A DNA stretch of 63,806 nucleotides, the filler included, from Hausera hauseri (lineage: Eukaryota): NCBI GenBank assembly GCA_046269625.1. It is 11 parts of 11 records of this genome, joined end to end, with 100 filler letters (N's around TTAATTAATTAA, not from the genome) between each part and the next. Parts side by side here need not be neighbours in the genome. Positions count along the whole stretch, not along the records: positions 16,476 to 20,924 come from JBJURY010575894.1; 10 more parts are not named here. One strand, given 5' to 3'. The notes beneath the pieces were generated by a model that saw only the letters and a list, made by a program, of their open reading frames with translations, was not told the DNA's origin and did not search any database. This document shows positions 1,071 through 52,771 of this stretch, piece after piece (the first letter of the stretch is position 1; every line of letters begins with the position of its first letter). The translations under genes and the position numbers were made by a program.

Positions 1071-2938
1071 TTACCTGATGATTTGTAGTTTCGCATAGAT
1101 TTCGGCATGGCGTTCAACGTCATTTTTCCATCGTTTTTTTTCGTATGCTTTAAGCATTTTGCCTAACGGTATGATAATTGCGGTTAAGATTTTGCATGAA
1201 AATCCTGTTAATGTGAATATTTCGTAGCCATTTATAACCGCTTGGATCACCGCTTTTACTAGTTGTACCAAGAAACAGATGGCTAAAAATCCAGATGCGG
1301 CTTGTCCAAAAATTAATAATCTTCCCCATATTTTGTAGAGTATTTCTGTGGTTACCCGTTGGTAATGATTTGCACCCAACAGGGATTCTTATTTAGCCTG
1401 GTATTGAGTATCGTCTACTACTGATGCCATAGCTCGATTTAATTCGTGCGTCCGTTGTCGTGGAAAAGCGAGAAATTGTCGAAAAGTTTCAATTTCTTTG
1501 GGCCTGTAAATACCTTTTGGGATGTACCTTGAAACTTGTCATTTGTAATTCCTTTCGCTAAATTAGTTCCAGTTAGATTTTTGGGAATGATAGTGACACC
1601 TTCATTGAGTAAGCTAATCCATTCCGTTTCTCTACGTATAAACATTGGTTCGCCCAAACTTGCTTTGCAGTCCTTTAAGATTGTGGGTTGTGTCGCATTA
1701 TCCAGCAACACTCTGGTGATGGTCATGGCTAGACGTGGAGTATTCTGGTAAATTACAGGGAGTTCTTGCATACATCTTTTTCGACTTTAATTGGCACATC
1801 TCTTTTCTCGCATTCATATGTGAGTAAAACCTGGTTAGCAACTCGACCAAAAATTCCTTCTCTCATGGGAATAATTGGTGAGGCTAACTCAGGATTCGCA
1901 TAAATAAGAGCTAATTTTGTCCTCATAATTTCCACATTTAGTTTGCAATCGTTAGTTATCATTGTGAGGTATAGTTCGGATATTCCGACTTGTGCTTTAT
2001 AATATTAATAATCATCTCGGTTTTTCAGATAATCTTCGATTGGAATGTCTTGTGTTTCTACGTTGTATGTTTTCGCGTTTATCTCCGTTTCTGCGACGGA
2101 AAACGCTTCATAGTTAGTGGTCAGCATTACCACTTCACAACGTGAAATCATTTCCTTTTTTATGAATTTCAATTCATGTTGATCAGAGATTAATATCGTA
2201 GGTGTATGATACTCTGATACGTCTTCACATGCTCTTGAACTGATGTCGGATTTGTCTACGTATCGTTTTCCGGTGGCTTCATTAAATTTCAATTCTTTAA
2301 TCTTAATAAAATTACAGCCTTTTTCAGCAGGCGGTTCCGATATGACGACAGAACTTTTAAAGGCACAGGTTCCGTCCTGTATATGACATTTTTGTTTTTC
2401 GGTATATAGTTTAGTGACGCTATGGAACATCACTTTGTGGACTCGCATTTCCGATTCGTAAAAGTCTACTACTACTATGCTTGCTTCCAATCCTTTTCCT
2501 GTGTCGTATTTTGCTCCACTGCAATGCCCTTTATGCATACCTAGCCTTCCAACTACTAGGCATTTTTAGCTCCATACTATCCCATTTCAGTCTTTCGGTC
2601 TCTCTGGACTGCTTTCAGTGTTGTCTTTCCAAATTCATTGGGATCGGAGGAGTTGTCGGTTTAATTATTGAGGAGTGCCCGTGAATTAGCCAACAGTGAA
2701 AAATACTACGAGATCACTTCAGCATACATTCCATACCATCCAAAGATATCAATTCTTGTTGTTGATATAGGAAATAACTCTTTTCCTTTGTTTCCAATTT
2801 ATGTGGTCTGGCATCTTCACATGCTTCTAAATCCATTAGTAAGTATTTTTGTCCAAGCTTTAATCTATCGCAATCGTAAACGATGACGGCCTCCAACTGT
2901 TTTATCAACATCATTATGGTGAGCAAACTGATTATCCA
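1071..2938 (-). pseudogene. Chuvirus-like (Jingchuvirales-type) class III fusion glycoprotein / env, frameshifted
   Basis: Internal signal peptide WIISLLTIMMLIKQLEA, then VIVYDC...C, GHCSGAKY, MITNDCKL, QELPVIYQN, and the membrane region WGRLLIFGQAASGFLAICFLVQLVKAVIQAVINGY. The motif order matches chuvirus-type glycoproteins. Split over ORFs 2714..3058, 2005..2538, 1753..1962, 1439..1771 and 1071..1379. Confidence 0.8.
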
Positions 2939-4250
2939 ATTAGATTCGTTCTTTCGGTTGTTATTATCTGTTGTCGTTAGATTCCGTATAATGTCTCCGA
3001 GTCCATTATTACTGTACCTTTTGTCTTCTTCCTTGTCAAACAGCTTCGGCCAATTCACTTAGCAGGGAAGCTTTTTAGATGCTCTTCGCGCCGAACTTGT
3101 AGCTAGGTTTAGTTCATTTTCTCGATTTGAATTTGTCTTAATTGCCAAGTACAATAATACTTTTCTTAGTTCTTCTATCGTATTCTCCACCATAATCTTC
3201 TCAATTTCTGCGTCGTCAGTTAGGCTACTTTTTGACAGTTTAAAACGCGAACTTCTCATTGTTCTAGCTGCGTTAAATGTCGCCTTTTCTTTATTATACA
3301 ATACATCTCCGCGGGGACTTGAATAATTTACAACAAGTATTAAATTCTTCATTAACTCGCTAAATTCTTTATTGTCAGTGCTAAAGGTAGGAATAAACAT
3401 CTGTCTCAGTTCTCTAATTAGTTCTCCGTTATAGGCAACTTCTCCTCGGGGCTTCCTAGGTCTGCCGACTGGGCGTTTCGGTCTTGGAGCATTAACTGGC
3501 ATTCCATTTAGCGGTACTAGATTCTTGTCGTATTGTTCCTTGTCCTCATCCGTCTGTAAGTACTCGAAATACATTGCTGCATCTCGTACTCCCATGATTT
3601 GCCTTACGCATTGTTCCGTTTCGGCCTTCCTCGTGGCCTCTTCTTTTGTCTGTTTGTTGGCTATTATTATTACTATTTGATTTGTTTCATCAGCAATAAT
3701 TTTGACGTCTATTAATTGTTCTAAATTGTAAACTATTCTTCCTCTAAAGTAAAATCTGTAATTTAGCTCATTTGTTACGCCATTGTTTAGCATCCATTCT
3801 CTTACGTCCTTTACATAGGAGCGTGTAGTTAACACACATTCTTTTTCTTCCGTCAATTCGGATGACATCATTATTTTCATAGTTACCTCATGTTTATTCT
3901 TCAAGATTTTCGCATACTTCTTTACTAAAAGCTTCGGCACCGTGTTGTAAATCATGTTTTCACTGGAAAATTTAGTCAAAGTCGGAATGAGTTCTCTGAG
4001 CTTATTTTCAGTCATATTCACATTAATTCATTCCATCAAGACGTTCTCGGTTAACGCTGAGTTTAGGAGAATATCCACATTGAATTTCCTGTTCTGCGGA
4101 TACTGTTAGCGTTGAGATATGGGACGAAACGCGGAGTCTGTGAAACACCATTTATTTCAACGTCATGTTGTACATTAAAACGGAGTTCTCCTTCGTCGAG
4201 TTGGTGATTTGACCGCTTGATGATTTCTTCGGATTGCATTGTTGTCAAAA
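2939..4250 (-). pseudogene. Polyprotein region upstream of env, with ubiquitin-like domain (~3659-3889) and AT-hook (~3446-3487)
   Basis: ORF 3059..4021 is in frame with 2714..3058, separated by one stop. YRFYFRGRIVYNLEQLIDVKI resembles ubiquitin [30 protein letters not shown] is an AT-hook-like GRP core. Confidence 0.6.
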
Positions 4251-4350: not shown

Positions 4351-5039
4351 TTACAAGTCCAATTGTTCATTAAAGCGAACATGTTGCATCCACTGCACCA
4401 GCGAACTTAATTTGTCCTGTCTATCTTTACCATAACCGGTATGTCATCAGATGTACTTGACTCAAGATAATTGGTGTTCATACATGATAACAGCTGGGTT
4501 TAGGTTCGTGTAAAATGGCCTTGACATATCATTCCATAATGGATCTAATTAACCAAATATTTTGACACAAGTGACGATATATCCAGCTGTGATGAGATAA
4601 TTATCGCATGATGAGACTTGTGAACTACGATTAACATGTGGTGTATACAGAAGAATATTTTTTAAGTAACGAATATATAAATGAAAGTAGATGGACAGTG
4701 AAATGTCGATTAATTCTCAAATAATTTTGTAAAATTAAATTTGTATAACATAAGTAATGGTCGTACTGTATTAGTTGACAAATATGAAAGATCTTGTGAT
4801 CTTTGTTGAATGATAACTACAGAGTACGCCATAAGTTACTATCACGTGCAAAAAATAGATAGTTAATATTTTATTCTTTGCCACAAAGTAAAAAACATTT
4901 CCAAATGCAGTTAAAAATGTCACACATCGTAAGGATCAACTTGAAGATCATTATGGAATACACAACTATGGACGGCTAAATGTGCGTCGATTAATAACAA
5001 TTAAATGGTCAGGAGAAATGTCTGAAAATGCGTTCCTGA

Positions 5040-5572
5040 TCGCATTCTTTAATTTCTCGATATTTCCAGCCTTCTGAGGGACAATTTTGGGCTTATTGAT
5101 CCCTCATTGGCATTATCTTATGAGGTGAGATGGGGGCTTCGATCGGGACAAGGAATTGGCCCGACTGTNNNNNNNNNNCCTGTTTATATCCCATGACTCA
5201 TCCTCGAACCACATCGATTTTTCTCCACTGAGGAGGAGGGTTTGGTGCTGTGCGCTCCCTTCCCTCTACTATCACATTCTTCAATTTCTTGATATTTCCA
5301 GCTTTCTGAGCGACGACTTTTGGCTTAATTATTCCCCACAGGGCATTATCGCATGAGGTGAGGTCGGGGCTTCGAGCGGGCCAAGGACCTGGACCGAACC
5401 TGCCCACCCGTCTGTCCGGAAATGTCTCGTCCAAGAACTTCCTCGTGGATTTTGCAGTATGTGCTGGTGTGCCGTTCTGCTGAAAGTGAGAGTGGAACAA
5501 TATTCCTTTTGCGTGTAAGTCAGGAACAAATTTATTGCGGAGCAAGGTTGTTGTGTCCTCGGTTTTCATCAA
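5040..5572 (-). mobile_element. Tc1/mariner-superfamily transposase C-terminal fragment, partly duplicated in tandem
   Basis: FQQNGTPAHT...FPDRRVGRFGPGPWPARSPDLTSCDNALWG (degenerate QQDGAPAH and SPDL motifs). 5040-5168 is a diverged copy of ~5275-5400. Confidence 0.8.
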
Positions 5573-5579
5573 AGGTTAT

Positions 5580-6110
5580 ATGTATCTTTTCTATATCAGG
5601 TTTATTTATGAATAACATAAAACAAATGATCCGATTTCGTTGGTGCTTGGAAATACCTCCAGAAAAATTTCTTTGCACCAACGAAGCTTGTTTTCTTGTA
5701 GGAACGGGGAATTTATTATACACGATAGATTTCAAGTTTTCACAAAAATATTTATTTTTAACACAATAAATAAATGATCCAAATAGCTTAGTACCAAGGA
5801 TAATTCAGTATTACGATATTGTATATTATAGTCCTCTTTCGAATCTCTTTTTCTGAATTTGAATTCAACTTTTTAGTATTTTAATTTTAATTTTAATTTG
5901 TACGCTCTTTTTTCTTTTTCTGTTTTTTAAACTGGAACCAGGTGCATTGATAGAGCAAAGTGATTCCGGAAATCAAATGGTAATACCTCCGGCAGCTATT
6001 TACAATAAATAATTCTATACATATAATCTACTATTATAATAGTACAATATGTATAAGGATACTAATATCTGGCGAACAATAACACCCGTGGTGGGCACCA
6101 CACTACTCCC
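5580..6110 (-). repeat. PPT (6103-6110) and 3' LTR of the contig 2 Gypsy element (left boundary approximate)
   Basis: Minus strand reads GGGAGTAG|TGTGGTGCCC; the same GAGTAG|TGTGGTGCC junction occurs at 61565. Confidence 0.6.
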
Positions 6111-6589
6111 ACGGTGAAAGTGAAAATCGTGAAATCAAAACAAACAAAAAATACATAAGACGAAAAGAAACCGCAGAGAAAATGTTTATGAGTTTTTTGT
6201 GTGAATCTGGCGTTGTATTCCTTCAGAATTAAGTTGTCTACTGTAGGTACTAAATGTCACTGACTTATGATGTATCAATGTTTTGGTGTCTGGTTGTTGG
6301 AGTGGGTTTGGAAGAATAATATCAGCTTCTGTAGAGTGGGATGTTATCTCCGGCAAATGTAATCCAGAAGGTAAAGAAGTGTATGAGGGTGTATGATTGA
6401 TGTTATCTTGTGAAGTACTAGAGGATAATGAGTCTGAAGAATGAGGAAGGTTTTCAGTGACAAAAGTATAGTCTGGAATAGGAATAGGAGGACAACTGAA
6501 AAGTGAAGTAGAGGTAGAAACAGAAACAGGAACAGAAGGAGATGTAAGAGTCAGAAAAGGAGTTAATGTTTCAATAGGAGAGGTATCAT

Positions 6590-9500
6590 CAACGAAAAAG
6601 GCAGGTTTTACGTTGTTAATATGAACCGCGATTTTTTGCCGTATTTAAGGATGACGGCATTGTGCGAGTGTAATTGGATCCGTTTATATGGTCTACTGTG
6701 GTTGGAAACCGCTCGGTGTTTGAATTTTAGCCAAATGAATTTTGCTGAATATAGGTCATTTGGTAAATATTTCTTGTCATTGTGTAACAACATACAAAAT
6801 AAGTCTTTACTGACCGTAACAAAGCGGTTTTATGCCTCTCTAATTATTTTATCTGTAGGTGTGTCTTCTAAAGCGGTCAATTCGAACAATGACCGTACAG
6901 AATCATCAAATAGGGATTCTGTAGGTGAGCATCCTGCAGAAGTGGATAGAGTGTTCCGCCAGCCAATCAGAACGAAGTGTAAGAGAGTTTTCCAGTTTGC
7001 ATTGGATTCTGCCAGAATTTTAAGCGATGTTTTTATCGTTCGATGAAATCTTTCAAGAAGGCCGTTCGATTGAGGATGATAAGGTATCGTATGGATGTGA
7101 TTATCCCCAATCGGTTAACCAGGGATTTAAACAGATTTGATTGGAATTGAGGACCTTAGTCCGAGATGATGAAACGAGGCGATACGAACCTATTAATCTA
7201 CGTACGAATGAAAGCATCCGCTATTGTGTCAGTGTTTGTGCTCCGCACAGGGATGGCTTTGGGCCATCGCGACGAACGATCCATCATGGTCAGAATGAAT
7301 TGATAACCGTTGTCTAGTGGAAGAGGGCCGACGAAATCGATATGTACGGATTCAAAACGTGATGCACAAGGGAAGTGAAATAGTGGTGGCCAAACTACTT
7401 GTCGTTGAAGTAAGCGGAAAGTTTCCTTGGCACCAATGTGGTGTAATGAATATACGCTATCAAATGCTTGTTTTTATAAAGATGGCGCAAGAATTATTTT
7501 GAGTTATCCTGGTTTAAAAGTGCCTAAGGCCACGCCATCAATGATGTTGTGAGACTCAAGCGAATTAAGAAAATCATGAGATGGCTGATTTTCTTGAAGA
7601 TTTCAATGGGTAAAAATTGGTAGAAAGTTGATTGAACTAACTGACCTAGATAAAAAATCGGAAACTAAATTATTAACGCCGTTGATATATTTGATATTGA
7701 AACTAAAAGTTTACAGATACGAAATTTGTCGTTCTTGACGTGTAGATAGGTGTTTCATAGTCATAATATTGACTAAAGGTTTGTGATCAGTTTGGATAAC
7801 GAAACTGTCAGCTGTAAGTGAGAGAAATGTTTTAAGGCCAAAACTATCGCCAGTAATTCTCGATCGAATGTAGAATACTTAGTTTCTGGTGGTGCTAATT
7901 TTCTAGAGAAAAATTTGAGTAGTTAATTTTCGCCTTTGTATAAGTGATGTAACACAGAACCTACCGCAGTGGTTGAAGCGTCTGAAGTGAGAATAAGTTC
8001 AGCGTCAGGTTTAGGAAATGCAAGAATTTCTACGGTTTTGAGACCTTAGTGCAGTTTATCAAACTTATGAAGCAATTCAGGTGTCAATTAAATAGACTGA
8101 TGTTTTTTCCCACTGCTCAAATGTGCGGAAGGTGCCGTGAGTTCCGGACAATATGGAACATATTTGTGGACGAAATGTAAAGTCCCCAAGAAACTCCTCA
8201 TTTCTGTTTTGGTTATTGGTAGTCGTATGCTTTTGATAGTTTCAAAACGTTCTGGCTGGAGAGAATGACCATTTGCTGAAATGATGTGGCCGAGAAAGTT
8301 TATAGACTTTTGGACGAAGTGACATTTCGTAAAATTAATTTGTAAATTATGGTGGTTAAGTCGTTGGAGAATAGAACGAAGGTGTTACTCGTGCTGTTTG
8401 GTTAAAGACGAAGCAATTAAGATATCGTCGATATATGGATGCGCGAAGGTGAAATCCGACAGCATTGAATCAATGTGACGTTGGAAAGTCTGTGCAGCGT
8501 TGCGTAAACCAAAAGGCATATAAATGTATTCGTACAGGCCGAAAGGTGTCGTAACGGCAGTTTTCTCATTATCCTCGGGTGCTACAGGAATATGATGATA
8601 TGCCTTAGCTAAGTCTATGGTTGAATATACTTTAGTGGAATTGAGCCGGTGCAGGATATGCTTAATTAGTGGTAATGGATTTGCATTCATAATAGTTAAA
8701 GTGTTGCCGCATGGTCAGAAAGATCCATCTTTTTTGGACAACGTGCAAAGACGAAGACCACGGCGATTTAGATCTGCATAAAATGTCGGAGCGTTCAAAG
8801 TCTAGAAATTCCGCTTCGACAGCTTGCCTACGACGAGGTGACAATGGACGTACCTTTTGACGAATAGGTCCTTGGTGTTGAGTTATAATATGATGAAAAG
8901 TGCTGTTTGTAGGTGTGTAGGTTCGGTCCTTCTGGATTAAGCGGGAGCATTAAATGTGTATGTATTGCCGTAGACTGGCAGGCAATTGTGAGAGATTGGG
9001 TGGTGTGCAGTGAAGAGTGATGTTTGCGAAGTATTGAAATCAAGGGGAATTTGGTGTAGGATAGTAGTATTAAAAATGGTGTTTGAAGAGGTAGTTTTGT
9101 CTAGTTAATGTACCGAACCAACACAATCGTAGTTATCAAAGCCAAATCTCAACGAAATATTAATATTATCATTAAAAATGTACAAAATGAAAAATTATTG
9201 TTAAAGAAGTTTGGATTAGTTATAGGATTTTTGAGTATAGACTTCCGCAGGAAGATCGTTTGCGCCTTAGTGGATATATCATTTATTTGCTTGGTAAGAT
9301 ATCCAGTAGTGTTACTTTTCAGACATTGTTGTTTGCAATTAACTAAAAGATTATAGTTGGATACGAAATCGGAACCTAGGATTGCTGTGAAGAAGTTGGC
9401 GATGGTAAACGTCCAATGAAACGTGGAATGAAAGTTTGGTAAGGTGAACGACAATTAGATGTATCTAAAATGTCAGGCGGTTGTCCTGACGCCGTAAATA

Positions 9501-9620
9501 ATGATTTAACTTGGAATGGTGAATTTTGTACACGGAAAGTTAGTGGTAGCAAAGGAACCGCAGCGCATGTGTCGATAAGAAAGTCTGTGGATTGAGTTGT
9601 TGGTGTGGTTATCGAAGCAT
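6590..9620 (-). pseudogene. pol: Ty3/Gypsy (CsRN1-like) pol: protease, RT, RNase H, integrase; degenerate
   Basis: FLIDTCAA and ILGSDF (protease); IDLAKAYHHIPV, TPFGLYEYIYMPFGLRNAAQTFQR, YIDDILI (RT); TSDAS and YSTFDRELLAI (RNase H); FESVHIDFVGPL and YHPQSNGLLERFHRT (integrase). Domain order PR-RT-RH-IN. Confidence 0.93.
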
Positions 9621-9789
9621 TTAGTGCAAAAACTGCAAAAGACGTGTGTCGGCAGGTAGTATTAGAGAAGTTGACTTTGCCAGACTCTGCCCTGAAAACT
9701 GGCGGCGAAATTAGTTTTTTTGGATTAGTGATATCGGCCGACTATTACTAGGGGAAATAGAACGTCTGTCGGTGGTATAGTTAGCGTTG

Positions 9790-10672
9790 TTCTTATAGGT
9801 GCAGCCGCAAAAGACATTTCTGTGCGTGGAATCTAAATTTCGCATGGTACATGCAAACAATTTTGTCTGAATGTAAATTTGGAGTGTAATATATACATCC
9901 TAAACAGCATTTATTAGCTTTACTATTAAATGTGTTATGATAATAGCACACAAAAGATCGTGTAGGCGATGGTGACTGTTTCTGGAAACAGAACGAGTAC
10001 GATTATAACACTTCTTCGTTTAACCTATTATTCATATTATTTATTGTCTGTTGTAGTGCTAAATTTTCAGCGCGTAATTGGCTCTACTGTTGCTATATTG
10101 TTGTATTGAGTTGATTGTCTCTTGATGTTACCGCGGCTGATACAATCGGTTGGGAATTCAATTGTTGCACTTCATATGCTTTATAGGCCAATACCGATAA
10201 TTTATCCAACGCCGTAGATTCCTCATCAACGTTAAGAAGTGACCTAATTTGTATAGGCAACGCGTTTAAGAAATATCGGCGCAGAACGTCTGAATTATGC
10301 TGCTTAGTTACACCCAGCGTTTGTAAGTTAGTCAACGACGTACGCTGGAACTCATAAGGCTTTTGTGTACCTATTGCGTTATCATTAAAGAAGCGATGAA
10401 TTTTAGAGTCCATGGACGGCTCTGTAAGTTTTGAAACTGCATTGTAAAGCTGAGTATAAGGGTCGGCCTGCTGAAAAATAGCTATGAGACTGTGGATACA
10501 AGTTTTGATGTTGGTTAGCTTTAGCCAGAGGATCAGTAATGTCACAAGATTGAAGCCATAGTTGGTGAAACTGCAATTAAGTTTTGCTAGAATTTTGGTT
10601 GTCAGTAAAATATTCAGTACACTGAGATGGGCTTGTAGATTGCTCAGTAATCACATGAAATTTCTGGACCAT
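9790..10672 (-). pseudogene. gag: Gypsy gag with two CHCC-type zinc knuckles
   Basis: DPYTQL, IGTQKP and FLNALPIQIRSLL, then CYYHNTFNSKANKCCLGC and CMYHAKFRFHAQKC. CHCC knuckles are characteristic of the CsRN1 clade. Confidence 0.8.
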
Positions 10673-10848
10673 TCATCTAATATATAATGATTGTTGCAAT
10701 GAACTCAAACTGGAACAAGAAACAGGAACAACTTAAAAGTCACTAAAATTATTGTTTTTATAAAACTTCATAAACTGTGCACATACGACTGTGCTTATTT
10801 AAACAACAAACGAAATGTCCATATAATTCTGTTTCTTCCTATTGAGTG

Positions 10849-11703
10849 AATGTGGATACCACATCAGCACCCCCTGGTTTAGTCAGTTTTGCCAGGCCGG
10901 ATCCAACGAGGGTCATCTGGTGATCAGCACGTCTGTGGATTATAATCGAGAAGCATTATGTTTGGTATGGATTGTTCTACTTCTCTATTATAGGATGAAG
11001 CAATGTTGACGAAGCTCGCACTGGCAACGCTGTATCTTTCGGTACTGCCACGTAATGCAATGGACATAGTTAAAACAGTGAACAGTCCTTTTCTTTCCAA
11101 TTGACTTGGAGATTTTATGAATAACGATCTAATGAACTCTGGATATAGGCCGTAAATTGTTCGACAATTACTCCTTGGATGAGCTTGAAAAGCGTTTTGA
11201 TCAAATCATATGCCGATTTCTGACGAGTGAGTGCATTGGATCCTTCAATATATTGACGAATATACTCTGCTGAGAAAGTACAATGAGAATCGTTTGAACA
11301 ATCGTCGGTTTTTAACATTTTATTCGGTGGATGATAGAACGACGAATCACTATCATCACAATCGGATTTACGAGAACGTTTGTGAGATTTGTAAGAAGGC
11401 AAATTGTTTGGGCTATGAGATTTGTGAAAGAGACCTGTTTGTCTAAGTTGTGATGATTTGGATTTCTTACAATCATTCAAATCGACGTTAGCAGCACCGC
11501 AAGTCCCTAATGTATCGACTGCATCGTCGATGGAGAAATAAAATAACTTTTGGATTTCGCCGTGATGCAGATGTGGAACATAAAAATCGAATTGATGTTC
11601 TTGGACTATAAGACAACCAGTCTGTCCTGTGTCAACTGGTTGATAGAGAACTGTCGATCCTAAAGGATCTGTAACCGTTATGGAATATTGAACGTCTTCG
11701 CGC
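10849..11703 (-). mobile_element. 3' part of a pol-less satellite LTR element (ORF, PPT at 10864-10876, LTR start at 10863), homologous to 29470..31300
   Basis: Protein similarity to the contig 6 ORF (CGAANVDLNDCKKSKSS vs CGAATVDLNCFKKSKSS; PPNKMLKTDDC; C*SPDDPRW vs CWNPHDPRW), followed by AGGGGGTGCTGA|TGTGGTATCCACATT. Confidence 0.7.
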
Positions 11704-16475: not shown

Positions 16476-17221
16476 CCCGTTGGTAAGTCAATCGCTATAT
16501 TCGATAGTCTTTTCAATAAATCACACCCTAAAACGACGTCATCAGTTAACTGATCCATAATAGCGAACTCATGTCCAAATGATTGCCCAACTAATTGGAC
16601 TTCTGGATTCCACTTAAACATTGGTTTTGACGTTTGGCCAAAAGCTCCTGTGCTTCCTGGATCTTTCGTAGACGGTGGATATAACTGTCTTCTTAGTGTT
16701 TGCGGTATTGAATCATTTTTAATATAAGACATCTCAGAACACGTATCAATTAATGCGTAAACTTCCCAATCTTCGATAATGATTTTGGCAAAGGGTCTTC
16801 CTTCTATTACTGTTCCAAAACAATTTGATGCTACTTTCGAACGTTTATTCGATGATATTTTGTATCCATTGATACGAATTTCTGCGGAGGATACTATATT
16901 TTCCGATAGTTGTCTCAATTCTTCATTTAAGTATACTTCATTGTTTTCTACGTGGAATTCTTCCGTTTCATGAGTACTGATTAACGTTTCACGATTGTTA
17001 GTATGTAGTTCGTTATGTTGAATGGTTTTCAATCTTGGATTATCCCAAATTGTTGATCTTGTTTCGATATTTTTAGGTTCTCTTGGCAAATACAACATCC
17101 TAGGGTCATCCGTGGATTGTCGATGACACATTTTGCGTAAGATTCCATACCGCTTCGCTCCTTCGTAAGGATCTTCTACATTAATTGTTCTTTTATAGAT
17201 TTCCGTCTGATATGAGTTCAT
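16476..17221 (-). pseudogene. Retropepsin-type aspartic protease (start of retroelement pol), truncated by the contig end
   Basis: RPFAKIII...YALIDTCSEMSYI...GAFG...HEFAIMDQLTDDVVLGCDLL matches the retropepsin DTG(S) and ILGxDxL motifs. Confidence 0.8.
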
Positions 17222-19290
17222 AGATCGTTTGTCACAATCTTCACAGAATGGGGTGGTGCTTTGACCACCGAATACATTTTGTGACGGTTTATCCTAAAAA
17301 ATGCTTCTCCTCCCTTAGGCTCGTCATCATCCGTATTATTTCTTCTTGTAATAGACCTTTTAAGTTTTCGCTTCCGCAGGAAGATAGGTTTTCCTCTTCG
17401 TTTTCGATTTAAGTAACCGACATGCCGTTCCACGTCCGATTTCCATCTACTTTCTTCGTACGCCTTTAGGATTTTTCCAAAGGGCGTTATGATTGCGGTC
17501 AATACCTTACATGAAAATCCAGTTATGGTAAATATCTCCTATCCATTTATTACCGCTTGGATTACGGCCTTTACCATTTGTATCAGAAAATATATCGCTA
17601 AAAATCCTGATGCGGCTTGTCCGAATATCAAAAATCTTCCCCACATTTTATATAGTATTTCAGTTGTTACTAGTTGGTAATGGTTTACACTGATTAAAGA
17701 GTCCCATTTAGCTTGATGTCTGGTATCGTCTAATACTGAAGCCATCGCTCGATTTAATTCGTGCGTTCGTTGTCGCGAAAAAGCGAGGAATTGTCTAAAG
17801 GCCTCAATTTCCTTTGCTCTGTAAATCCCTTTTGACGAGGTGTCTTGAAATTTGTCATCTGTAATTCCTTTCGCTAGATTCGTTCCTGTTAATTTGTTTC
17901 GAGCGGCAGTGATACCTCCATTTGGTAAGCTAACCCAGTCCGTTTCACTACGCCTAAACATGGGTTCTCCTAAGCTTGCCTTACAATCCTTGAGAATAGT
18001 TGGTTGCGTCGCATTGTCCAACAAAACTCTCGTCAATGGTGTAGCTAATCTTGGGATGTTCTGATAAATAACGGGAAGTTCCTGAATATAGGGTTTTTCT
18101 TCCATATTGAGGGGTACGTCTTTCTTTTCACATTCGTAAGTTAGCAGTACGTTGCCTGTGACTCTACCAGAAATTTCTTCTCTTATGGGATTTATTGGGG
18201 AAACCAATTCCGGATTTGCATAAATCAATGCCATTTTAGTTCTCCTAATTTCCGTATCCAGTTTGCAGTCATTCGTTATCATTTTATGATATAATTCCAT
18301 TATTCCGACTTGTCCTTTATAGTAAAAGTAATCGTCTCTATTCTTCTGGTAATCTTCGATCAGGATATCCTGCGTTTCTAACTTATACGTTCTTGCATTT
18401 ATTTCTGTTTCTGCGACAAAAAATGCTTCGTAGTTGGTAGCGAACATTACTACATCGCAATGAGAAATCATTTCTTTCCTGATAAATTTTAGTCCGTGTT
18501 GATCCGAGATTAATATGGCGGGCGTAGAATATTATGATACATCTTCTCGCGTCCTCGAACTGGTTTCTGATTTATCCACATATCTCTTTCCCGTAGTCTC
18601 ATTGAACTTGAGTTCTTTAATTTTAATAAAATTACAACTCCTTCCAGAGGGAGGTTCCCATATTATAACCGAGCTTCTAAAAGCACAGGTTCCGTCTTGT
18701 AAATGACACTTTGGGTTTTTGGTATATAATTTAGTGACACTATGGAACATTACCTTTTGTGATCGCATTTCCGATTCATAAAAATCTACAACTACTACGT
18801 TTGGTTTTAATCCTTTTCCTGTGTCGTATTCTGCTCCGCTACAATGTCCGCTATGCATATCTAACTTTCCAGATATCACTTTGTATGGTCTAATTATTTT
18901 TCCGGGTTGCATTTCCAATTGTAGGCTATCACATTGTATTTTCCCACTTTCCTTGGCTTGTTTACAATGTTGACGTTCTAGGTTCATCGGATTAAGCCGT
19001 GTGGTCGGTTTAATTATAGAGGAGTGACTATGAATTAATCCACAATGGCAATGCTACGCGATAGTCTCAACATGCATTCTATTCCATCTAACGATACCAA
19101 TTCTTGCTGTTGATATAGAAAATAATTTTTTTCTCTTGTTTCCAATTTGTTTAGTCTGGCATCTTCGCGAGCTTCCAGATCCATTAGGGAGTATCTTTGT
19201 CCTAACTTAAACTTATCGCAGTCATAAACGGTCACAGCGCCTATGTGCTTGATCAACATCATTAAAGTGAGCAAGCTAATTAGCCTATTT
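17218..19290 (-). pseudogene. Chuvirus-like class III glycoprotein / env, second copy
   Basis: Colinear homologue of 1071..2938 (AVTVYDC, GHCSGAEY, SKGIYRAKEIEAFRQFL, WGRFLIFGQAASGFLAI), followed by a basic cytoplasmic tail. Confidence 0.82.
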
Positions 19291-20924
19291 GATTTGTTCT
19301 TTGACCTCCTACGTCTGACATTGTCAGGTTGCGTATCATATCATCCAGTTTATTGTTATTGCGTTTATCTTTTTCTTTCTCGAATAACTTTGACCAACTT
19401 ACTTCGTAGGGCAGTCTTCTCGCTGCTTTTTGTGTTAAGCTTATAGCTCTGTTGATTTCGTTCTCGCGGTTAGGACTTACTTTGATATCCAAATACAGCA
19501 AAACTTTTCTCAATTCTTCATTCGTGTTTTCTACCATGATTTTTTCTATTACTGACTCATCGGTTAAGTTACTTTTTGATAGTTTGAAACGTGAACTTTT
19601 CATCATATTTGCTGCATCAAATATTATATTTTCTTTATTGTCTAACACATCTCGAAAGCTGGAGTAATTTACAATTCGTATTAAATTCTTTATTAATTCA
19701 CTTAATTCTTCGTTATCTGGGCTAAGGGTCGGAATCGACATCTGTCTCAATTCTCTGATTAATTCTCCATTGTAGTCCACTTCTCGCATTATCCTAGGTC
19801 TGCCTACTGGACGTTTTGGTCTTGGGCCTTTCGGGGTTACTTCGCTTAGTGGTACTAAATTTATATCGTATTGTTCTTTATCTTCCTCCCTTTGTAAATA
19901 CTCAAAATATAGTGCAGCGTCTCGGACTCCCATAATTTGTCCGACGCATTCTTCTGCTTTAGCCTTACGTGTGGCTTCCTCTTTTGTCTGTTCGTTAGCT
20001 ATTGTGACCACTATCCGATTTGCTTCATCAGGAATAATTCCGACATCTATTAGCTGTTCTAGGTCGTCGAGTATTCTACCTCTAAAGTAGAATCTGTAGT
20101 TTAACTCATTTGTCCCGCTATTGTTTAATAACCATTCTCTCATCCTTTACGTAGGAATAAGTGGTTAATTCACATTCCTTTTCATCCATCCACTCGGATG
20201 ATACCATTATTTTTATCTCTACCTCTGGTTTTTTCCTTAAGATTTTAGCATATTTCTTTATCAAAAGTTTCGGCACCGTACTATAAATCGTGTTTTCGCT
20301 AGATAATTTAGTTAACGTTGGAATAAGTTGTCGTAGTTTAGTCTCAGTAATATTTAGGTTAATTAATTCCATCAAATCTTTTTTAGTTAGCGTTGAATCT
20401 ATTATCATTTCCACATTGAATCTCCTGTCTTTGGGACATGTTTCTATTTCGTTTAGGTGTACTGGAGTCATGGGTTCTCCGGTAAGTATTTTGTCGAAGT
20501 ATGCATCCCATTCGGGTTCGTTTTCGACATCCGCAAGTCGGTAGTCCACTAAAGCTGTATTGGCTGTTTGAATGTTTTCGCGAATTTCCTTTAGTTTAGG
20601 TTGTATTTTCATTTTCGTCGTTCGGAAACCTACTCCATTTCCGCAGGCATATTGAATCGTCTTCAATAATTCACCGAATTCGTTAGTCGATTAGCCCTTT
20701 TTGGTGATAATCTGTTAATTCGAGAATCACATCCTTTTGTCATCTTTGTACAAATTCTTGTTTATTCTTAATTTCGGACTCGGTAAAAGCATGTTTGTTT
20801 CGGTAGACTTCAAGTTCTTTTGTTATTTCGTCTAACCTTATCGCTCTTTGTTTTGTTTTAATACATGTTTCTTCTACTTTATGTATTCTGGGCATCAATT
20901 GTCTCATCTGTTCATCACTGATTT
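19280..20924 (-). pseudogene. Upstream polyprotein region, second copy (ubiquitin-like domain ~19995-20228, AT-hook ~19790-19830)
   Basis: ORFs 20118..20666 and 19280..20143 are a frameshifted equivalent of 3059..4021; contain YRFYFRGRILDDLEQLIDVGI and PKRPVGRPR. Confidence 0.65.
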
Positions 20925-31167: not shown

Positions 31168-31806
31168 ATGAAAGATTCGTTTTTACTTCGAAATTTTACA
31201 ATAATCGTAAACACGAATATTTAAAAAACACATTTTTCAAAAAAATGTTATACATAGTTATATATAGTTATTTTTTGGGTGGGCCTATATGGGCACCACA
31301 GGACCTTTCGAGGGACCATATACAGACTTGGATACATCTGAAAGGATGATTTCTTGCATATGATGCCTTCAAGCAATCCACAAGAGATCCCTGCCCAAAC
31401 TCTGCTAAATTTTGACACAGACATTTTGAGAAAAACATGTATTGGATGCTGTTGTGTCGAACACTAGCCCCATTACCTGATCTTCTATTCTCCATTCCCT
31501 GAGTGCTGTACAACAGGCTCCTGATTAATNNNNNNNNNNNNNNNNNNNNNNNNNNNNNNNNNNNNNNNNNNNNTTAATTAATTAANNNNNNNNNNNNNNN
31601 NNNNNNNNNNNNNNNNNNNNNNNNNNNNNATCGAGTTGCAGTCTTATAGGCAACGGTTTTTTACTGTGAGATAAATATCATTGTTGGTGACACAGACGGT
31701 TTTTTTCTTGAGTGTCATATAGTTGATTTGCGACCACAGCTATTGCCAGCAATGATAGCTAATGAACAGTTGGACACGTATAATTACAATCATAAGTTAT
31801 GGAAAA

Positions 31807-32683
31807 ATGGGAAGTCTGCCTCATCCCGGGGGGGATGTGCGCATCGATAAATCGATAATGCACATGGGCTAATCGATAGTGCACACTGCACTATCGATCG
31901 GTAGTGTGCTAGGCGACTGTACCGCTAGGCACTGTTACTATGCACATTTTTGCACATTTGACAAATCTATCGCTGCACAGTGCAATAATGATCGAATCGA
32001 TCGGGACAAAGTTCTAATCGATAGTACACAGTGCACGTCGATTAGTGCACAGTGCAAGTGTGCAGCACATGTGCAAGTATGCAAAAATCAATAATATCCG
32101 ATTTCCGATAATTCCAATATTGACGATTATGGCACGGCACCGGGTGCAATTGAAAGCACACACGATGGACTGTGAAAATGTGCAGTTAGAATTTATATAT
32201 GTTGATTGGTTTTCGAATAATTGTCAACTGATGCAGACTTCCCATAGGCCTTTCCGTTATAAAATGAAAATCAATAATATTAATATGGTTCATACTGGCG
32301 GGTGCAGTACTTGATATACTATCGTTCAGTGAAATACTCGAGTCAGGTGTCCACTTGGATACGGTTGCTAAGGCACCTTTTCACTTTTTACATATTTGTC
32401 ACTGCAGCGTCGGATTGATGGAATCAATTGGGTCAAGTGCAGGTAAATAGAGCACATCGAGATGCACCTTGATATATACTGCGCAGTGCAAAAACACGTG
32501 TGCAAGTGTGCAAAAATCAAAAATATCGGTTTTCCGATATTTCCAATACTGATGATTAGGACGTGACAGGGTGCATTCGAACACAAACATTGTGCAGTTT
32601 ATGAATGTGCGGTTAGAATTTAAATTTATCGAGCCGATTTCGATTAATATCGATCCAAAATGCAACTGAGGCAGACTTCCCAT
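31807..32683. repeat. Non-coding element bounded by a perfect 17-bp inverted repeat, with a duplicated right arm
   Basis: ATGGGAAGTCTGCCTCA (31807) is inverted at 32667-32683 and, with one mismatch, at 32229-32245. ~32050-32250 resembles ~32480-32690. Many ATCGAT and TGCA palindromes. Confidence 0.7.
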
Positions 32684-33419
32684 AGGTTTGTTAGGTGATA
32701 AGGAGTCAAAATACGATAGTATAATTAGCGGGGCAGATAGGAAGTCGAATATGGCGATCTCAAATCTCAAGTCAGATATTCGAAATTCGAATATTTTCGA
32801 GCTCGAATATCAAAGTTCAAACTACTCGAAAAATCTAACAGCGTCAATCGATTCCTCATATATGAAAACCCCCCTTTACATAAAAATTATTCCATGAAAA
32901 TGTACTATATAGATATAAAATCAATATATCGAATTAAGCAAAATCTGAATTTAAAGCTCAGTGAAGCGGAAATCGATAAATGTAATAGCGGGGCAGGATA
33001 GCAAGTCATATATGTTGAACTGGTATATGGTGTTATATATTCTAATTGGAGCTTCCAAGTCGAATATTTAGCAATTCGAACTCGAATATTCGGTCAAGCA
33101 TGCAATATTTGAGGAATCTAATGAGGCCATTCGAATCCCCATGGTCTAGAACCTTATATTTGGCGCCACCATGTATTTAATTTAGTTGATGCATTAAAAC
33201 AAAAGTGAATTAAACCGATCAATAAACGGGGCAGTACATGGTGATATAACTATATTTTTGATTATTTCCAAAATCACTTCAACGAATGGTGAGTTTTTTA
33301 ATTGTGCTCCTCAAATAGTTGGTTGATTTTTAGATGTGCAAGCTATACAGGGAATGCTTGGTTCAAATCCATGAGCCTGAAAATTATTAAGAAATACTTC
33401 AGCCATCTATACAACAGGG

Positions 33420-36400
33420 CTGAGTATTATGTGCCGTATATGTGAGGTAGTGTGCCAAACCAATTATGTAGACTTTACAGTGTCCATAAACAGCGCTTGA
33501 TTTCCTTCATCAAGTGGGAAAACCATATTCAGTACAAATATACCAATAACGACTTTCGTGTCAAAGGAAAATCAAAAATGCAGTTTGTGTATTGCACATG
33601 TGGAATACACAACCCTCAGAATTGCCACAATACCATGAGGAGCTACTATGGACACAAATTTAATATGATCATCTATTATATCTGCCCAGGATTTGAGGTC
33701 GTATGTGATGGAGAATACATACAGTTTTATGAAGATTACAAACATCATTTGACTGACTTCGCATCAAAGTTAAAGAAGATCATCTTTAATGAACATGAGC
33801 CAGTTGCAGCACAGCTTGTAGTACAGCCAGATGCAAGACTAAAATGCGCATCAGGCGTAGCAGCTCCTTCAAAGAGTCAAAGACAGCGGCCAGTTGATGC
33901 AACGGCATTAAAGAGGAAATGCCGCAAATGTCATTGATGCAGCTGGTCAAACAACCATTAAGGAGTTCTTGGAGTACACAGAGGAATAAACAGAGGGAAC
34001 TCTGCAGGACAGCATAACTGAGCTCAAGGCCACATACGTTAATGTTGATGGCGAAGAGTCCAAAAGGGCTTTAAAGACCAGAAATAGACCCATTTTTGAA
34101 GCACCAATATAGCAGAATGGCTGCATGAAGAGCATGCAAAGCTGGTCCGTGAAGCCGATGAGAGCCGCAGTAAGAAGAGCGGATGGACTCTGGCAACCAT
34201 CAAGAGATTGCTTGTGTATGTGCACAGATTCTCCCGCATGCGGGGTAGTTCATATATTCAACTCCTTGATTGGATTACTAATAAAAAAGCATGTGTCAAT
34301 TTCAATAATAATGACAACATGTGTTTAATGTATGCCATTCTATCAAAACTCGTGCCTGATCAACATAATGCTTCACGAGTTTGGCAATATAAGTATATGC
34401 AGCACAACTATGACTTCCAATGTATCAAGTTCCCTCCATCTTTAGATGAAATGAAGAAATTCAGTCAAATCAACAATATATCCATCAATATCATTGGATT
34501 GGATGATGAGGACAAATTTTATCCCCGACAGATATATGATAATGAATTGGACGATCATAGGGATCTGCTCCTACTAGATGATGGAGAAAAGAAACATTAT
34601 GTTTGGGTAAAGAACTTTAAGTGTCTAGTCGGATCCCAAATTTCGAATCATCATGGACAAATAGAAATATGTAAGCGATTCTGTCCCATTTCAGTGGTGA
34701 TTCAACAGTTGACAAGCTTGCAGAGCACAAGATGTACTATAGCAACAATTACTGTGTAAGGCAAGAATTTCCCGAGGAGGACTATATTGAATTCAAGGAG
34801 TTCGAGAAGAAGACTAAGGTCCCAATAGTTATCTATTGCGACTTTGAAGCTATTCTCCGGTCACTTCACAGGTGCACTCCCAGTCCTCAAGATAGCAGCA
34901 CAACGGCATACCAATATTATGAACTCTCATCATATTGTATGTATGCTAAATGACTGTACAGTGAACCATGTCTATTCAGAGGTCCAGGTGCAGCAGCACA
35001 TTTCATGAAACGACTTGAAGACATGGCTCATAAGCTTGAAAACATGTTTCTGCAGCATAAGGATAATACGAGCATGTCGTGGAAACAAGAAGAATGGCGC
35101 AAGGCAACAGAATGTTACTTGTGCTCAAAATCATTCACAAAGGATAATCATAAAGTCAAGGACCATTGCCATTTTACAGGTGCATATCGGAGCGCAGCAT
35201 GCAACAACTGCAATCTTCGCTGCAAAACATTCACATATGTGCCTGTAGTGTTCCATAATCTTAGTGGCTACGATTCCCATTTCATAGTCTAAGAATTAGG
35301 CAACATTGAAGGAAACATTGATGCGATCCCAAACAGTGAGGAGAAATACATCACATTTACGTAGAATGTTGGGAAAATCCGACTTCGATTCATAGACAGC
35401 TTTCTATTTATGTTGTCTTCACTGAACAGTTTAGTGGAGAACCTCCCTGCATAAGAAGTCAATGAGACGAAGTGATACTTCCCCACTACATTTGATCTGA
35501 TTAAAAGGAAAGGCGTGTTTTCCTATGACTACATAACGTCATGGGAAACACTGGATGTGACGTCATTGTTGGTCAAGAAGGACTTTTACAATATCCTCTC
35601 TGATTGCGATATCAGTGGTGCTGACTACCAGCATGCTCAAAATGTCTGGAATGCATTCCAATGCTGAACATTAGGGGAATACAGTGATATTTCCCTCAAG
35701 ACGGACGTGGTGCTTCTGACAGATGACTTTGAAAGCTTCAGGCATGTTACAATGAAGAGCCATGCATTTGATCCGGCTCATTTTTTTACGACTCCAGGAA
35801 TGAGCTGGGCAGCAAAGCGGAGGCATACTGGTATTAGGCTGCAGATCATTAAGGATTATGATATGATCCTTATGATCGAGAGAGGCATTAGAGGCGGAAT
35901 ATGCCAGGCCATTCACCGGTGTAGTGAGGCCAATAACGAGTATATGGCCCAGTATGATCGATCCAATGAACCCTCATATATATCATACCTGGATGCCATA
36001 AACTTGCATGGATGGGAAATGAATGCCCCATTGCCATATGATAACTTCAAATGGGTCGAGAATCTTGGAAACATCCCTATGTTGGACCTAGATCACACTG
36101 GAGATACGGGATACATTCTGGAGGTAGATATGGAATATCCGGTTTCCGTCCACGCAAGGCATCAATAGCTGCCTTTTTTCCCTGAGAGCAGGCCTCTGCC
36201 CCATGGAGAGCAGAGAAAGCTGCTCTGCCATCTGGGTAATAGGGATAGGTATGTAGTCCACTACATCAATCACCATCAGGCAGTTAGACATGGACTTCGT
36301 ATTACCAAGATCCATAGAGCCCAGCTGTTCAACCAGTCCATGTGGCTGCAGTCATACATAGATCTCAATTCGAAGTTGCGGACTAATGCCAAGAACGACT

Positions 36401-37088
36401 TTGAGAAGGACCAGTTCAAGCTTTACAACAACTCGGTCTTTGGCAAGACGATGGAGAATATCCGCAACAGGATCAACATTGAGCTAGTATGTGACTGGAA
36501 GCGGGCAAAGCAGCTCATTGCCAAGCCTGATTTCCACAGCAGCATCATATATACTGAGAACTTGGTAGGCATCCATATGCTGAAAATAGCATTGATATTC
36601 AACAAGCCCATATATGTGGGTATGGCAATCCTCGACCTGTCAAATACCCTGATGTATCATTTACACTACGACATCATGGTCTCCAAGTTCAAGTCCATAC
36701 AGCTGATGTACTTGGATACTGATAGTTTCATCTATCAGATCCATACAGAGCATATTTATTAGGACTTTGCCCAATTGGCTCAACACATGGATACCTTGGA
36801 CTATACAAAGGAACATCCCAACTATTCAATTGCAAATAAGAAAGTCCTTGAGAAATTCAAAGACCAGATGAATGGAGCAATCATCTCAAGATTTGTAGCT
36901 CTCATATCTAAAATGTATGCTCTAGACATATGTGACCAGATCAAAAAGAGAGCCAAGGGCGTTTAAAGGGCTACCTTAGTCAAGACGATCAGTTTTCAGG
37001 ACTATGTGCCAGTTCTGCAGGAACAGACTCACATCATTTCAGAAATGAGAAGGATCCCATCTAGGGATTATAACATCCAAACAGTAAC
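33420..37088 (+). pseudogene. polB: Polinton/Maverick protein-primed family B DNA polymerase with endonuclease VII-like insert, degenerate
   Basis: GSSYIQL..KKACVN, IYCDFEA (ExoI), KDHCHFTGAYRSAACNNCNL, FHNLSGYDSHF (ExoII), RGIRGG, YLDAINLHG (motif A), KLYNNSVFGK (B), YLDTDS (C), KAKGV-like KRAKGV. Confidence 0.93.
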
Positions 37089-39816: not shown

Positions 39817-39914
39817 GTAACTCTGCATAAAAAAGTCTAGATTGGATGGACGACAAGAGGCAGATCCTGAGCGATGGAATCCACACACTACCTCATGGAC
39901 ATGTGGCCTTGTAA
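39817..39914 (+). pseudogene. polB: C-terminus of Polinton polB, resumed after the insertion
   Basis: LDWMDDKRQILSDGIHTLPHGH* is the typical DDKR...TLPxGH end; AATAAA at 39934. Confidence 0.88.
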
Positions 39915-40259
39915 ATATTGGTATTCATTGTTTAATAAATGTTGTATAGAAATATCCTGTTGTCTTCTTTATCAAGTAATGTGGGATATAGGATAAGGCC
40001 AAGTAAAACTAAGTAACTACTATATAGGTTAAGACCAACTAATTTCANNNNNNNNNNNNNNNNNNNNNNNNNNNNNNNNNNNNNNNNNNNNTTAATTAAT
40101 TAANNNNNNNNNNNNNNNNNNNNNNNNNNNNNNNNNNNNNNNNNNNNTAATAGATTTGCACCATCACACAGAACCAATAAAACAAAAAAGGGTAACCATC
40201 TACCCTTCAAACAGGCCATTAAAAACGACCTGCTATCATTCTAACTTTCTTTTTATAAT

Positions 40260-42323: not shown

Positions 42324-42596
42324 TTTGACATTTTTTCATCTTCTTTGTGCTCGATAGACATTTTTGTAAATACTAACATTTTGTTATATCTCTATCACTT
42401 ATTTGTATGTCTTTTGTACCTTGTTATTTTTTTGCTATTTAATTTACATGTGACGCATTGTAGAATCATTTTTTGTGTTAATATCTAAAAAATTATTTCA
42501 AATTACTTGACTGAATCCTCTAATGTTGAAAATAATCAAGTGCCATATTCTGATAATCATGAATCGGTATGAATAATGCTATTTTATTATTTTTAG

Positions 42597-43786: not shown

Positions 43787-44127
43787 ACTGTTGACCGGCA
43801 GTCGTTGATGTAGTTTATGGTTTGCCTGAGTATTTAGAACATTTCCTACTTATTCTCGTCCTCCTCCGAACCATGAAGTGTTAAGCCCCTATCATGTGTG
43901 ACCTTGTTAGGTGTGGTCAGATTGATTATATTGTTCCGCCAGAAGGTGGTGTTTCTTACTATCATTCTATACCTAATGTTGGTGTAAACGATTTATATCA
44001 GGAGTTTGGTGTGGACCAGCATGTTATTTTGTAATGTTTTTGTACTTTTGTTGTATGTGTTAATCAAACGTTACTATATTTAGTTGCTCAATATTGTTGT
44101 AAATGTTGTTAAATAAAATTATATATA

Positions 44128-51475: not shown

Positions 51476-51486
51476 GCGGATTTTAT

Positions 51487-52718: not shown

Positions 52719-52771
52719 TTGTGTGTGTGTGTCTGTCTGTCAATCGAAAATCTTACGACGATGACGTTTGT

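Follow-up and report, generated by a model that had tools for sequence, protein, structure and literature searches.

A decayed, probably Ty3/gypsy-type element of Hausera hauseri with a gB-type envelope region upstream of the protease

Contig 4 of the window (the whole 63,806 nt stretch that was analysed, 11 contigs joined by N44-TTAATTAATTAA-N44 spacers) very probably carries a decayed Ty3/gypsy (Metaviridae) LTR element of the GAG-ENV-POL type with a gB-type envelope, nearest to a flatworm group with the Schmidtea errantiviruses and, by domain order, Burro/GYPSM1. Positions 16476-20924 are exactly this one contig of 4449 nt. All parts of the element are on the minus strand, in the order helical bundle, ubiquitin/SUMO-like domain (UBL), AT-hook-like motif, helical domain, signal peptide, glycoprotein, TM helix, spacer and retropepsin (Table 1), and the single strand and the order agree with the original prediction.

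The contig 4 copy is decayed and dead, with at least five frame breaks and two in-frame stops in the coding sequence, at least seven in total. Given these breaks, a single polyprotein can only be inferred for this copy; the earlier description of an envelope embedded in a polyprotein holds for the relatives, which have it in one frame, but for the broken contig 4 copy it goes beyond the reading frames present. Gag, RT, RH, IN and the LTRs lie beyond contig 4, which stops after the protease, and both ends of the element are outside it, as had been stated for RT and the LTRs. No LTR-like or long repeat was found in contig 4, and the repeats in contigs 4 and 1 are short and at chance level. The upstream coding region contained no Gag motif, no significant Pfam match and no match among 151 collected proteins, and no Gag was found by Pfam in the 1.6 kb present upstream of the envelope.

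Table 1. Features of the contig 4 element and its diverged copy in contig 1 (positions in the window)
Feature	Position	Strand	Basis or remark
Upstream coding region, no assigned domain	20397..20922	-	Two frames, break near 20743-20690; reaches contig end
Small helical bundle before UBL	20223..20396	-	Also in relatives P0008, P0014, P0019
Putative ubiquitin/SUMO-like domain (UBL)	19999..20225	-	Frameshift ~20146-20121; same domain unbroken in contig-1 copy
AT-hook-like GRP motif	19787..19822	-	GRP core at 19804
Helical domain where relatives have a Bcl-2-like domain	19352..19774	-	Alignment by position
Predicted internal signal peptide of envelope	19236..19289	-	Hydropathy peak; same segment in relatives matches, E down to 1e-12
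Predicted Cys-rich class III (gB-type, Monjiviricetes-like) ectodomain	17644..19235	-	PF24664 and herpes gB profile matches
Predicted TM helix, then moderately hydrophobic stretch	17470..17643	-	Hydropathy, translation; stop at 17541-17539
Putative cytosolic tail and spacer	16802..17469	-	Frame break between ~17408 and 17221
Retropepsin (aspartic protease)	16505..16801	-	PF00077 RVP; frame open to contig end
Second, diverged copy (contig 1), helical bundle end to envelope tail	1103..4092	-	blastn 74% over 3025 nt

The envelope glycoprotein and the protease

The envelope of contig 4 has the features of a class III (gB-type) ectodomain flanked by a signal peptide and a TM helix. Only two hydrophobic stretches reach the level of 1.6 in the Kyte-Doolittle scan (19-residue window), and these are the predicted signal peptide and one TM helix, both of which had been named before. 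The ectodomain is interrupted by a frameshift near 19053-19038 and a stop at 18534-18532. All three ectodomain pieces match PF24664 (Monjiviricetes_fusion) in Pfam in collinear order (E 0.11, 7.6e-8 and 5.1e-32), and the ectodomain read through the breaks with X matches positions 85-601 of the 653 in the profile (E 1.1e-47). The comparison with herpes gB proposed in the original prediction gave matches to gB in 38 of 39 PDB rows with the envelope family profile, the best at E 8e-4.

The retropepsin matches PF00077 with E 1e-4 (23 bits, cut-off 20.7) and has the catalytic motif D-T-C at 16747. This match, on the same strand as that to PF24664, bears out the proposal that a class III envelope is located upstream of a protease. 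Of the collected proteins, polyprotein P0005 gives the best match to the protease, with its second protease (E 1.3e-8); when the window protease ORF and the contig-1 ORF were searched against PDB sequences, only chance rows came up. The tail and spacer between envelope and protease have no homologue among the collected proteins. The basic tail described earlier coincides with a frame break, beyond the end of the contig-1 similarity, and may be an off-frame reading.

Relatives and lineage of the element

The envelope search covered 1.84 billion representatives, and its top 14 matches at E<=1e-30 are mostly long polyproteins. Among 18 matches chosen by rank and length for a Pfam scan, ten have an envelope followed by a protease, with five going on to RT-RH and four to IN; the families in these ten are gypsy-type and no BEL/Pao marker was found in them. 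P0002 is an eleventh relative with an envelope and then a protease. The tree joins the window envelope and these 11 relatives in one clade with a support of 1.0, but the window sequence sits on a long branch (1.53), and its position in the subclade has a support of only 0.195. In this clade the protease comes straight after the envelope in one open frame in 11 of the 14 relatives, the remaining three ending before the protease point, and is followed by gypsy-type RT-RH-IN in P0003, P0005, P0015 and P0021. Gag markers are found upstream of the envelope, up to ~600 aa before it, in P0008, P0013, P0019 and P0021. The order with the envelope before pol is therefore genuine and the lineage very probably Ty3/gypsy, not BEL/Pao; the survey for the order glycoprotein, protease, RT that had been suggested thus finds it in the relatives. 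Since Gag, RT, RH, IN and the LTRs are outside the contig, the gypsy identity rests on relatives with an envelope identity of 22-31%.

It is most improbable that contig 4 represents an Anakin-like BEL/Pao element, or simply an inserted chuvirus glycoprotein with the protease adjacent by chance. PF24664 takes in chuvirus and BEL/Pao glycoproteins, and in P0029 the glycoprotein is preceded by DUF5641, but both P0029 and the stand-alone glycoproteins of ~650 aa fall in the other main clade of the tree. The envelope of contig 4 precedes the protease, the polymerases of its close relatives belong to gypsy-type families, and Pfam showed no viral N or L gene in contig 4 or contig 1. A non-retroviral chuvirus EVE is likewise at odds with an envelope embedded between retroelement domains in a clade of retroelement polyproteins. 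The label chuvirus-like in the original prediction, taken as a recent capture from a chuvirus, is not upheld by this position apart from the stand-alone glycoproteins. Mosquito BEL/Pao elements with a chuvirus-like glycoprotein, as described (Dezordi 2020, PMC7642597; PMC13524379), share the Pfam glycoprotein family with contig 4 but have the envelope last and a BEL/Pao pol, and such glycoproteins are found in the other clade.

The junction between envelope and protease could also have arisen from two adjacent elements, an envelope cassette and the protease of an unrelated gypsy element inserted or recombined just past the envelope tail; this is unlikely. The part of contig 4 in common with the contig-1 copy is 17418-20428 only, ending just past the TM helix, the frame break and the spacer follow the envelope tail, and no protease was found by Pfam and homologue searches in the 1.1 kb left of contig 1, or in ~440 codons after its TM helix. 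However, spacers between envelope and protease are unconserved among the relatives as well, and the distance from TM helix to protease, ~299 codons in contig 4, is inside the range of 148-391 in seven relatives. Envelope and protease are on the same strand, an LTR boundary between tail and protease, named beforehand as a sign of two elements, has no counterpart among the repeats of contig 4, and relatives that extend to the protease point have both domains in one frame.

The accessory block and the diverged copy

Upstream of the envelope, a profile of three relatives ranks the ORF of the helical bundle top of 278 (E 1.3e-5; 19.3 bits against 8.4 for the best shuffle). The bundle is left without a name because the model of the P0019 bundle matched generic bundles only (Z up to 8.6). 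Pfam does not match the UBL in the window; a profile of four relatives, with segments picked by eye, nevertheless puts its ORF at the top of all 278 in the window (E 2.5e-5; 18.7 bits, the best of 900 shuffles reaching 8.2), in line with the UBL originally proposed. Judged from their sequences, both blocks are homologous to blocks of the relatives. The relatives' block is itself tied weakly to UBLs: its profile matches the ubiquilin-2 UBL with E 0.08, and P0019 has a Pfam ubiquitin match with E 0.068. A low-confidence model gives the beta-grasp strand order. In the AT-hook-like motif, also predicted before, V replaces the R that is the first residue of the canonical AT-hook. A GRP[RK] motif is located upstream of the envelope in P0005, P0007, P0008 and P0019.

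Directly before the envelope four relatives have a Bcl-2-like domain. Pfam finds Bcl-2 in three of six relative segments (best E 2.5e-5), and the P0019 model gave the Bcl-2 family in 40 of the 40 Foldseek matches listed, none reaching E 0.001; A179L and ORFV125 are among its structure-search matches. The helical domain at this place in contig 4 lacks the BH2 GGW motif and matches the relatives' Bcl-2-like profile with E 3.3, below significance; the hhalign score was 17.0 (P 0.05), higher than in any of 60 column shuffles. An AlphaFold model of the contig-1 block from an 8-row alignment was too poor for a fold call (pLDDT 43.6, pTM 0.21); its best matches were at E 0.68 in Foldseek and Z 6.6 in VIA, to generic helices, with no Bcl-2 protein among the 50 matches listed. 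ESM Atlas searches with the contig-1 ORF and the putative Bcl-2 region gave no usable match, and the accessory-block profile found only its own members among longer proteins (two of 7695 candidates).

The contig-1 copy is flanked by unrelated sequence on both sides and can be read from the UBL to the signal peptide in a single frame broken by one stop. Between the two copies dN/dS is 0.08-0.14 along the whole cassette, a sign of purifying selection on all of it, and dS is 1.1-1.8 or saturated. With this deep divergence the contig-1 copy is an old sister lineage, the result of an old split and not of recent amplification; the second copy of the original prediction is thus real, but to call the cassette amplified was an overstatement. 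A dN/dS of ~0.1 might also be seen in a domesticated host gene, an exapted fusogen fused to a UBL and AT-hook and still under selection. Such a gene is hardly credible here: each copy is broken by several stops and several frameshifts, whose sites differ between the two, and selection therefore predates insertion and decay, and the relatives are retroelement polyproteins. The 235-codon frame after the envelope in contig 1 had no homologue (0 of 1454 candidates) and no Pfam family. A SAM-like pattern at 878-651, read by eye, had no Pfam support and was rejected.

Proposed expression and known elements

The intact ancestor of the Ty3/gypsy element would have encoded one polyprotein, in the order Gag, accessory block (helical bundle, UBL, AT-hook and Bcl-2-like domain), envelope, PR, RT, RH and IN as in the relatives. 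The internal signal peptide would direct the ectodomain into the ER lumen and the single TM helix would bring the chain back, so that PR-RT-RH-IN would be on the cytosolic face, as hydropathy and the known topology of viral polyproteins suggest, and would be cut free by the protease. By analogy with its family, a trimeric class III envelope may enable the particles to enter germline cells or adjacent cells by fusion. The accessory block may act on the host: the UBL could serve in processing or be a decoy, the AT-hook could bind DNA, and the Bcl-2-like domain would counter apoptosis with the leftover envelope signal peptide as its tail anchor.

A more tentative and rather doubtful proposal is that the helical bundle-UBL-AT-hook-Bcl-2 block is a conserved module of the wider clade with the envelope before pol, rather than peculiar to the giant Burro elements, and maybe present in an unreported host group. 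The signal peptide would serve as the Bcl-2 tail anchor, and one cleavage would therefore release a fusogen together with an apoptosis blocker anchored in the membrane; the window domain, with BH2 lost yet purifying selection kept, would have changed its function. If the Bcl-2-like domain is functional and anchored in this way, these elements would carry an anti-apoptotic tool of a kind more usually associated with large DNA viruses. This is open to test in intact relatives such as P0019 and P0004, and host tinkering of this sort was considered worth testing in a 2019 review (PMC6431247).

Envelope-before-pol order is already known from flatworms, nematodes and bryozoans, and the inverted invertebrate lineage proposed for contig 4 is genuine as to the order in its relatives but not new. 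GAG-ENV-POL errantiviruses with an HSV/gB-type envelope are described from these three groups (Chary and Hayashi, eLife, PMC13524379) and resemble contig 4 in having the envelope before pol and a gB-type ectodomain flanked by a signal peptide and a TM helix. This holds especially for Platyhelminthes_C1a, Smed_errantivirus_1-6; by eye, the Smed rows have a domain I-II pattern like that of the window envelope, unlike the Bryozoa rows. That catalogue holds intact elements, whereas the contig 4 copy is broken; its text does not mention Bcl, ubiquitin, AT-hook or Burro, and the accessory block is therefore not discussed there. Among nematodes, the non-canonical ERVs of Sacco et al. 2022, a metavirus with env and pol flipped as cited in PMC13524379, are similar by this description only, and the accessory block is not known from them.

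Planarian Burro/GYPSM1, as reviewed in PMC6431247 with reference to Grohme 2018 and Jurka 2007, has SUMO-like, BCL2-like, env, PR, RT, RH and IN in one frame, is more than 30 kb long with an ORF of ~4,900 aa that includes MATH, BIR, ankyrin and dUTPase-like domains, and has decayed copies with stops and frameshifts in D. japonica. Its envelope is ambiguously described there, with gypsy Env homology and mononegavirus glycoprotein matches. By domain order only, it is like contig 4 in the Ubi2/SUMO-like domain upstream of the envelope and in the envelope followed by PR, and both have decayed copies; it differs in that the window helical domain is without BH2 GGW and has the insignificant Bcl-2 match. 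The window has ~37% G+C, compared with more than 70% A+T in S. mediterranea (PMC11410931), so its host is probably a different animal. The contig 4 element adds one decayed member to the described class and links the Burro domain order (SUMO-like, BCL2-like, env, PR) with the gB-type GAG-ENV-POL catalogue.

The missing pol was also sought in the RT-RH-IN sequences of contigs 2 and 11, but these were rejected: their identity to the RT-RH-IN of the relatives is 23-40%, apart from one 24-residue piece at 62%, and no envelope match occurs there. Contig 2, as read by eye, has a Gag-like ORF of its own.

The contig 4 element and its second copy

The window (G+C about 37%) consists of 11 contigs joined by spacers, and the feature occupies the entire 4449 nt of contig 4. 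The coding pieces are interrupted by two in-frame stops and five frame changes, and the copy is now decayed; no LTR-like repeat was found within the contig. Three consecutive pieces matched the Pfam family PF24664 (Monjiviricetes_fusion), covering 5-83, 85-227 and 265-574 of the profile, and the glycoprotein read through with X gave E 1.1e-47. Hydropathy indicated a signal peptide and one TM, and the final piece contains a retropepsin (RVP, E 1e-4) with the motif D-T-C. The PF24664 pieces, the signal peptide, the TM and RVP are collinear on one strand, as the original prediction described. Of the 39 PDB rows returned by a glycoprotein profile of 60 sequences, the window's among them, 38 were herpesvirus gB (best E 8e-4), and these matches of the family profile support the assignment of the contig 4 env to class III.

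Positions of features in the window
Feature	Position	Strand	Basis
Coding pieces, contig 4	20922-20743, 20690-20121, 20146-19283, 19340-19038, 19053-18535, 18531-17542, 17538-17221, 17293-16478	minus	
Retropepsin D-T-C, contig 4	16747
Part of contig 4 matched by contig 1	17418-20428
Region past env tail, contig 1	1-1103	minus
SAM-like pattern, contig 1	878-651		by eye only
Ordinary gypsy elements, contigs 2 and 11	4351-11703, 59196-63806
Degenerate TTCG-rich satellite, contig 3	11804-16375
Contig 7	31630-40047
DNA polymerase B fragment, contig 7	36169-36759		PF03175, E 1.1e-5
Contig 8	40148-44913
Walker-B-like stretch, small-virus Rep helicase-like, contig 8	42962-43441		by eye
LINE ORF, contig 9	46054-48996
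Contig 10	50410-59095
TBP-like ORF, contig 10	57753-58391	opposite to Polinton-like region	PF00352, E 1.8e-13

Contig 1 carries a second copy, which matches only one part of contig 4 (74% over 3025 nt). Purifying selection has acted in the past: of eight segments, six allowed an estimate of dS and gave a dN/dS of 0.08-0.14 between the copies, and dS is saturated in the other two, the putative Bcl-2 region included (pN 0.15, pS 0.78). These ratios indicate that the entire cassette was formerly coding and constrained, and that the split between the two copies is old. Contig 1 has a single frame from the UBL (ubiquitin-like) block to the signal peptide, with one stop, which is in line with a polyprotein.

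Gene order in the relatives

Past the env tail the two copies diverge. The following 1.1 kb of contig 1 gave no protease and no homologue in Pfam and database searches; it contains an unrelated, partly open coding region of 235 codons with one stop, also without a Pfam or database match. This divergence, with no protease in what remains of contig 1, is the main point in favour of the rival reading of two separate elements, an env cassette and the protease of an unrelated gypsy element inserted or recombined just after the env tail. The TM-to-protease spacing is about 299 codons in contig 4 versus 148-391 in the relatives (seven of 11, with the TM located by pattern).

Among 1.84 billion representatives scanned, 362 matched, 14 of them at E<=1e-30. 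Pfam was run on 18 of the 150 listed matches, picked by rank and length, and on one added relative, P0002. Env is followed by protease in one open frame in 11 of these 19; five of the 11 run on to RT-RNase H and four to integrase (P0003, P0005, P0015 and P0021). Their pol contains the families RT_RNaseH, Integrase_H2C2 and gag-asp_proteas, and Pfam found no BEL/Pao marker. The order env before protease is settled by these relatives. The other eight comprise three that stop in or at env (P0006, P0014, P0019), two with env last (P0029 after DUF5641, P0078 after integrase), two with env alone and one with a fusion to Ig domains. In P0146 the PF24664 glycoprotein is placed behind Ig domains, which may reflect an artefact of gene calling or else a fusion that was domesticated.

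The env tree (FastTree, 507 columns, midpoint root) included the first 45 by id of the 92 proteins, out of 151, that covered at least 400 residues. The window env and 14 relatives form a clade with support 1.0, 11 of the 14 being the env-PR proteins, and stand-alone glycoproteins of about 650 aa fall outside it. In a subclade (support 0.979) the window groups with eight relatives, of which seven have some part of the accessory block upstream of env and one starts within env. The branch leading to the window env is long, and the tree does not fix where in the subclade it belongs.

The feature proves real. The structural reading in the original prediction, a retroelement with a chuvirus-like class III env upstream of the protease, was mostly right, but the order is not new. 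PMC6431247 describes Burro/GYPSM1 as a single ORF of Gag, CCHC knuckles, MATH, Ubi2/SUMO-like, BCL2-like, env, PR, dUTPase-like, RT, RH and IN, with an env matching mononegavirus fusion glycoproteins, and calls this the first case of an env lying in frame between gag and pol. PMC13524379 catalogues GAG-ENV-POL elements with gB-type env from Platyhelminthes, Nematoda and Bryozoa; Sacco 2022 is among the works it cites. By eye, the six Schmidtea env rows in its supplements resemble the window env and its top matches, whereas the ten Bryozoa rows do not. The contig 4 element works like the env-before-pol gypsy errantiviruses and groups with them on testable features; its likeness to Burro proper is one of domain order. 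Its intact form would have been translated as one polyprotein, in which the signal peptide and single TM would leave the ectodomain lumenal and PR-RT-RH-IN facing the cytosol, and env would drive cell entry.

Several relatives have two to four tandem retropepsin-like domains downstream of env (motif counts: three in P0004, two each in P0005 and P0007, four in P0008), and P0010 and P0013 each have two Pfam protease stretches there. The available parts of published descriptions of such elements contain no mention of this arrangement. P0003, P0005 and P0015 have long C-terminal extensions; that of P0003 (aa 2250-2627) lies past the integrase and holds what look like another signal peptide and TM.

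The region upstream of env

The complete order is seen in P0019: Gag, CCHC, helical bundle, UBL, GRP motif, Bcl-2-like domain, signal peptide and env. With profiles of relatives alone, the helical and UBL blocks of the window gave E 1.3e-5 and 2.5e-5; both ranked top among 278 ORFs and cleared 900 shuffles by a wide margin. These E-values are somewhat generous because the segments were picked by eye after the likeness was noticed. The accessory block would work on the host.

Pfam Bcl-2 matched three of six relative segments (best E 2.5e-5) and neither window row. With the profile of the relatives' pre-env region, the E-value was 0.006 for Bcl-xL and 0.08 for the ubiquilin-2 UBL. The P0019 model (overall pLDDT 54, rising to 70-87 for the last domain) gave the Bcl-2 family in all 40 Foldseek rows listed (best E 5.7e-3, none below 0.001), and Z 7.0 with rmsd 4.9 over 110 residues against ASFV A179L. 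Directly upstream of env, four relatives have a tryptophan-GGW motif of BH2 type. The putative Bcl-2 region of the window aligns with the relatives by position, without GGW; its profile match is weak (E 3.3), and in hhalign (P 0.05) its score of 17.0 lies just above all 60 shuffles (16.0). It is possibly a degenerate Bcl-2 fold.

The signal peptide of P0004 comes about 30 residues after the BH2 motif, and Bcl-2 proteins bear a tail anchor at that place; from this position, the env signal peptide may double as a Bcl-2 tail anchor. No such dual role is stated in the Bcl-2 literature searched or in section 7 of PMC6431247, and the primary Burro paper or its supplement may cover it.

By eye, pre-env segments resemble DEDD-type exonuclease domains in P0015 (at about aa 110-290) and in P0014 (at about aa 370-450); Pfam gave no match to them at E 0.01.

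Other contigs of the window

The other contigs contain ordinary animal repeats: a LINE that carries endonuclease and RT, gypsy sequence with RT-RH-IN, and Polinton-like sequence coding for integrase and DNA polymerase B. The gypsy elements of contigs 2 and 11 are related (65% identity, both RT-RH-IN), and no env match was found in either. Contig 8 has several ORFs, with no Pfam match and none in the phage collection. The open LINE ORF of contig 9 is 980 aa long, with AP endonuclease and RT. Many spurious plus-strand ORFs in contig 3 are due to its TTCG-rich satellite, which has longer recurring units. The DNA polymerase B fragments of contig 7 are of Polinton type, and contig 10 is a decayed Polinton/adintovirus-like region with an integrase (rve, E 2e-6) and, by eye, capsid-like ORFs.
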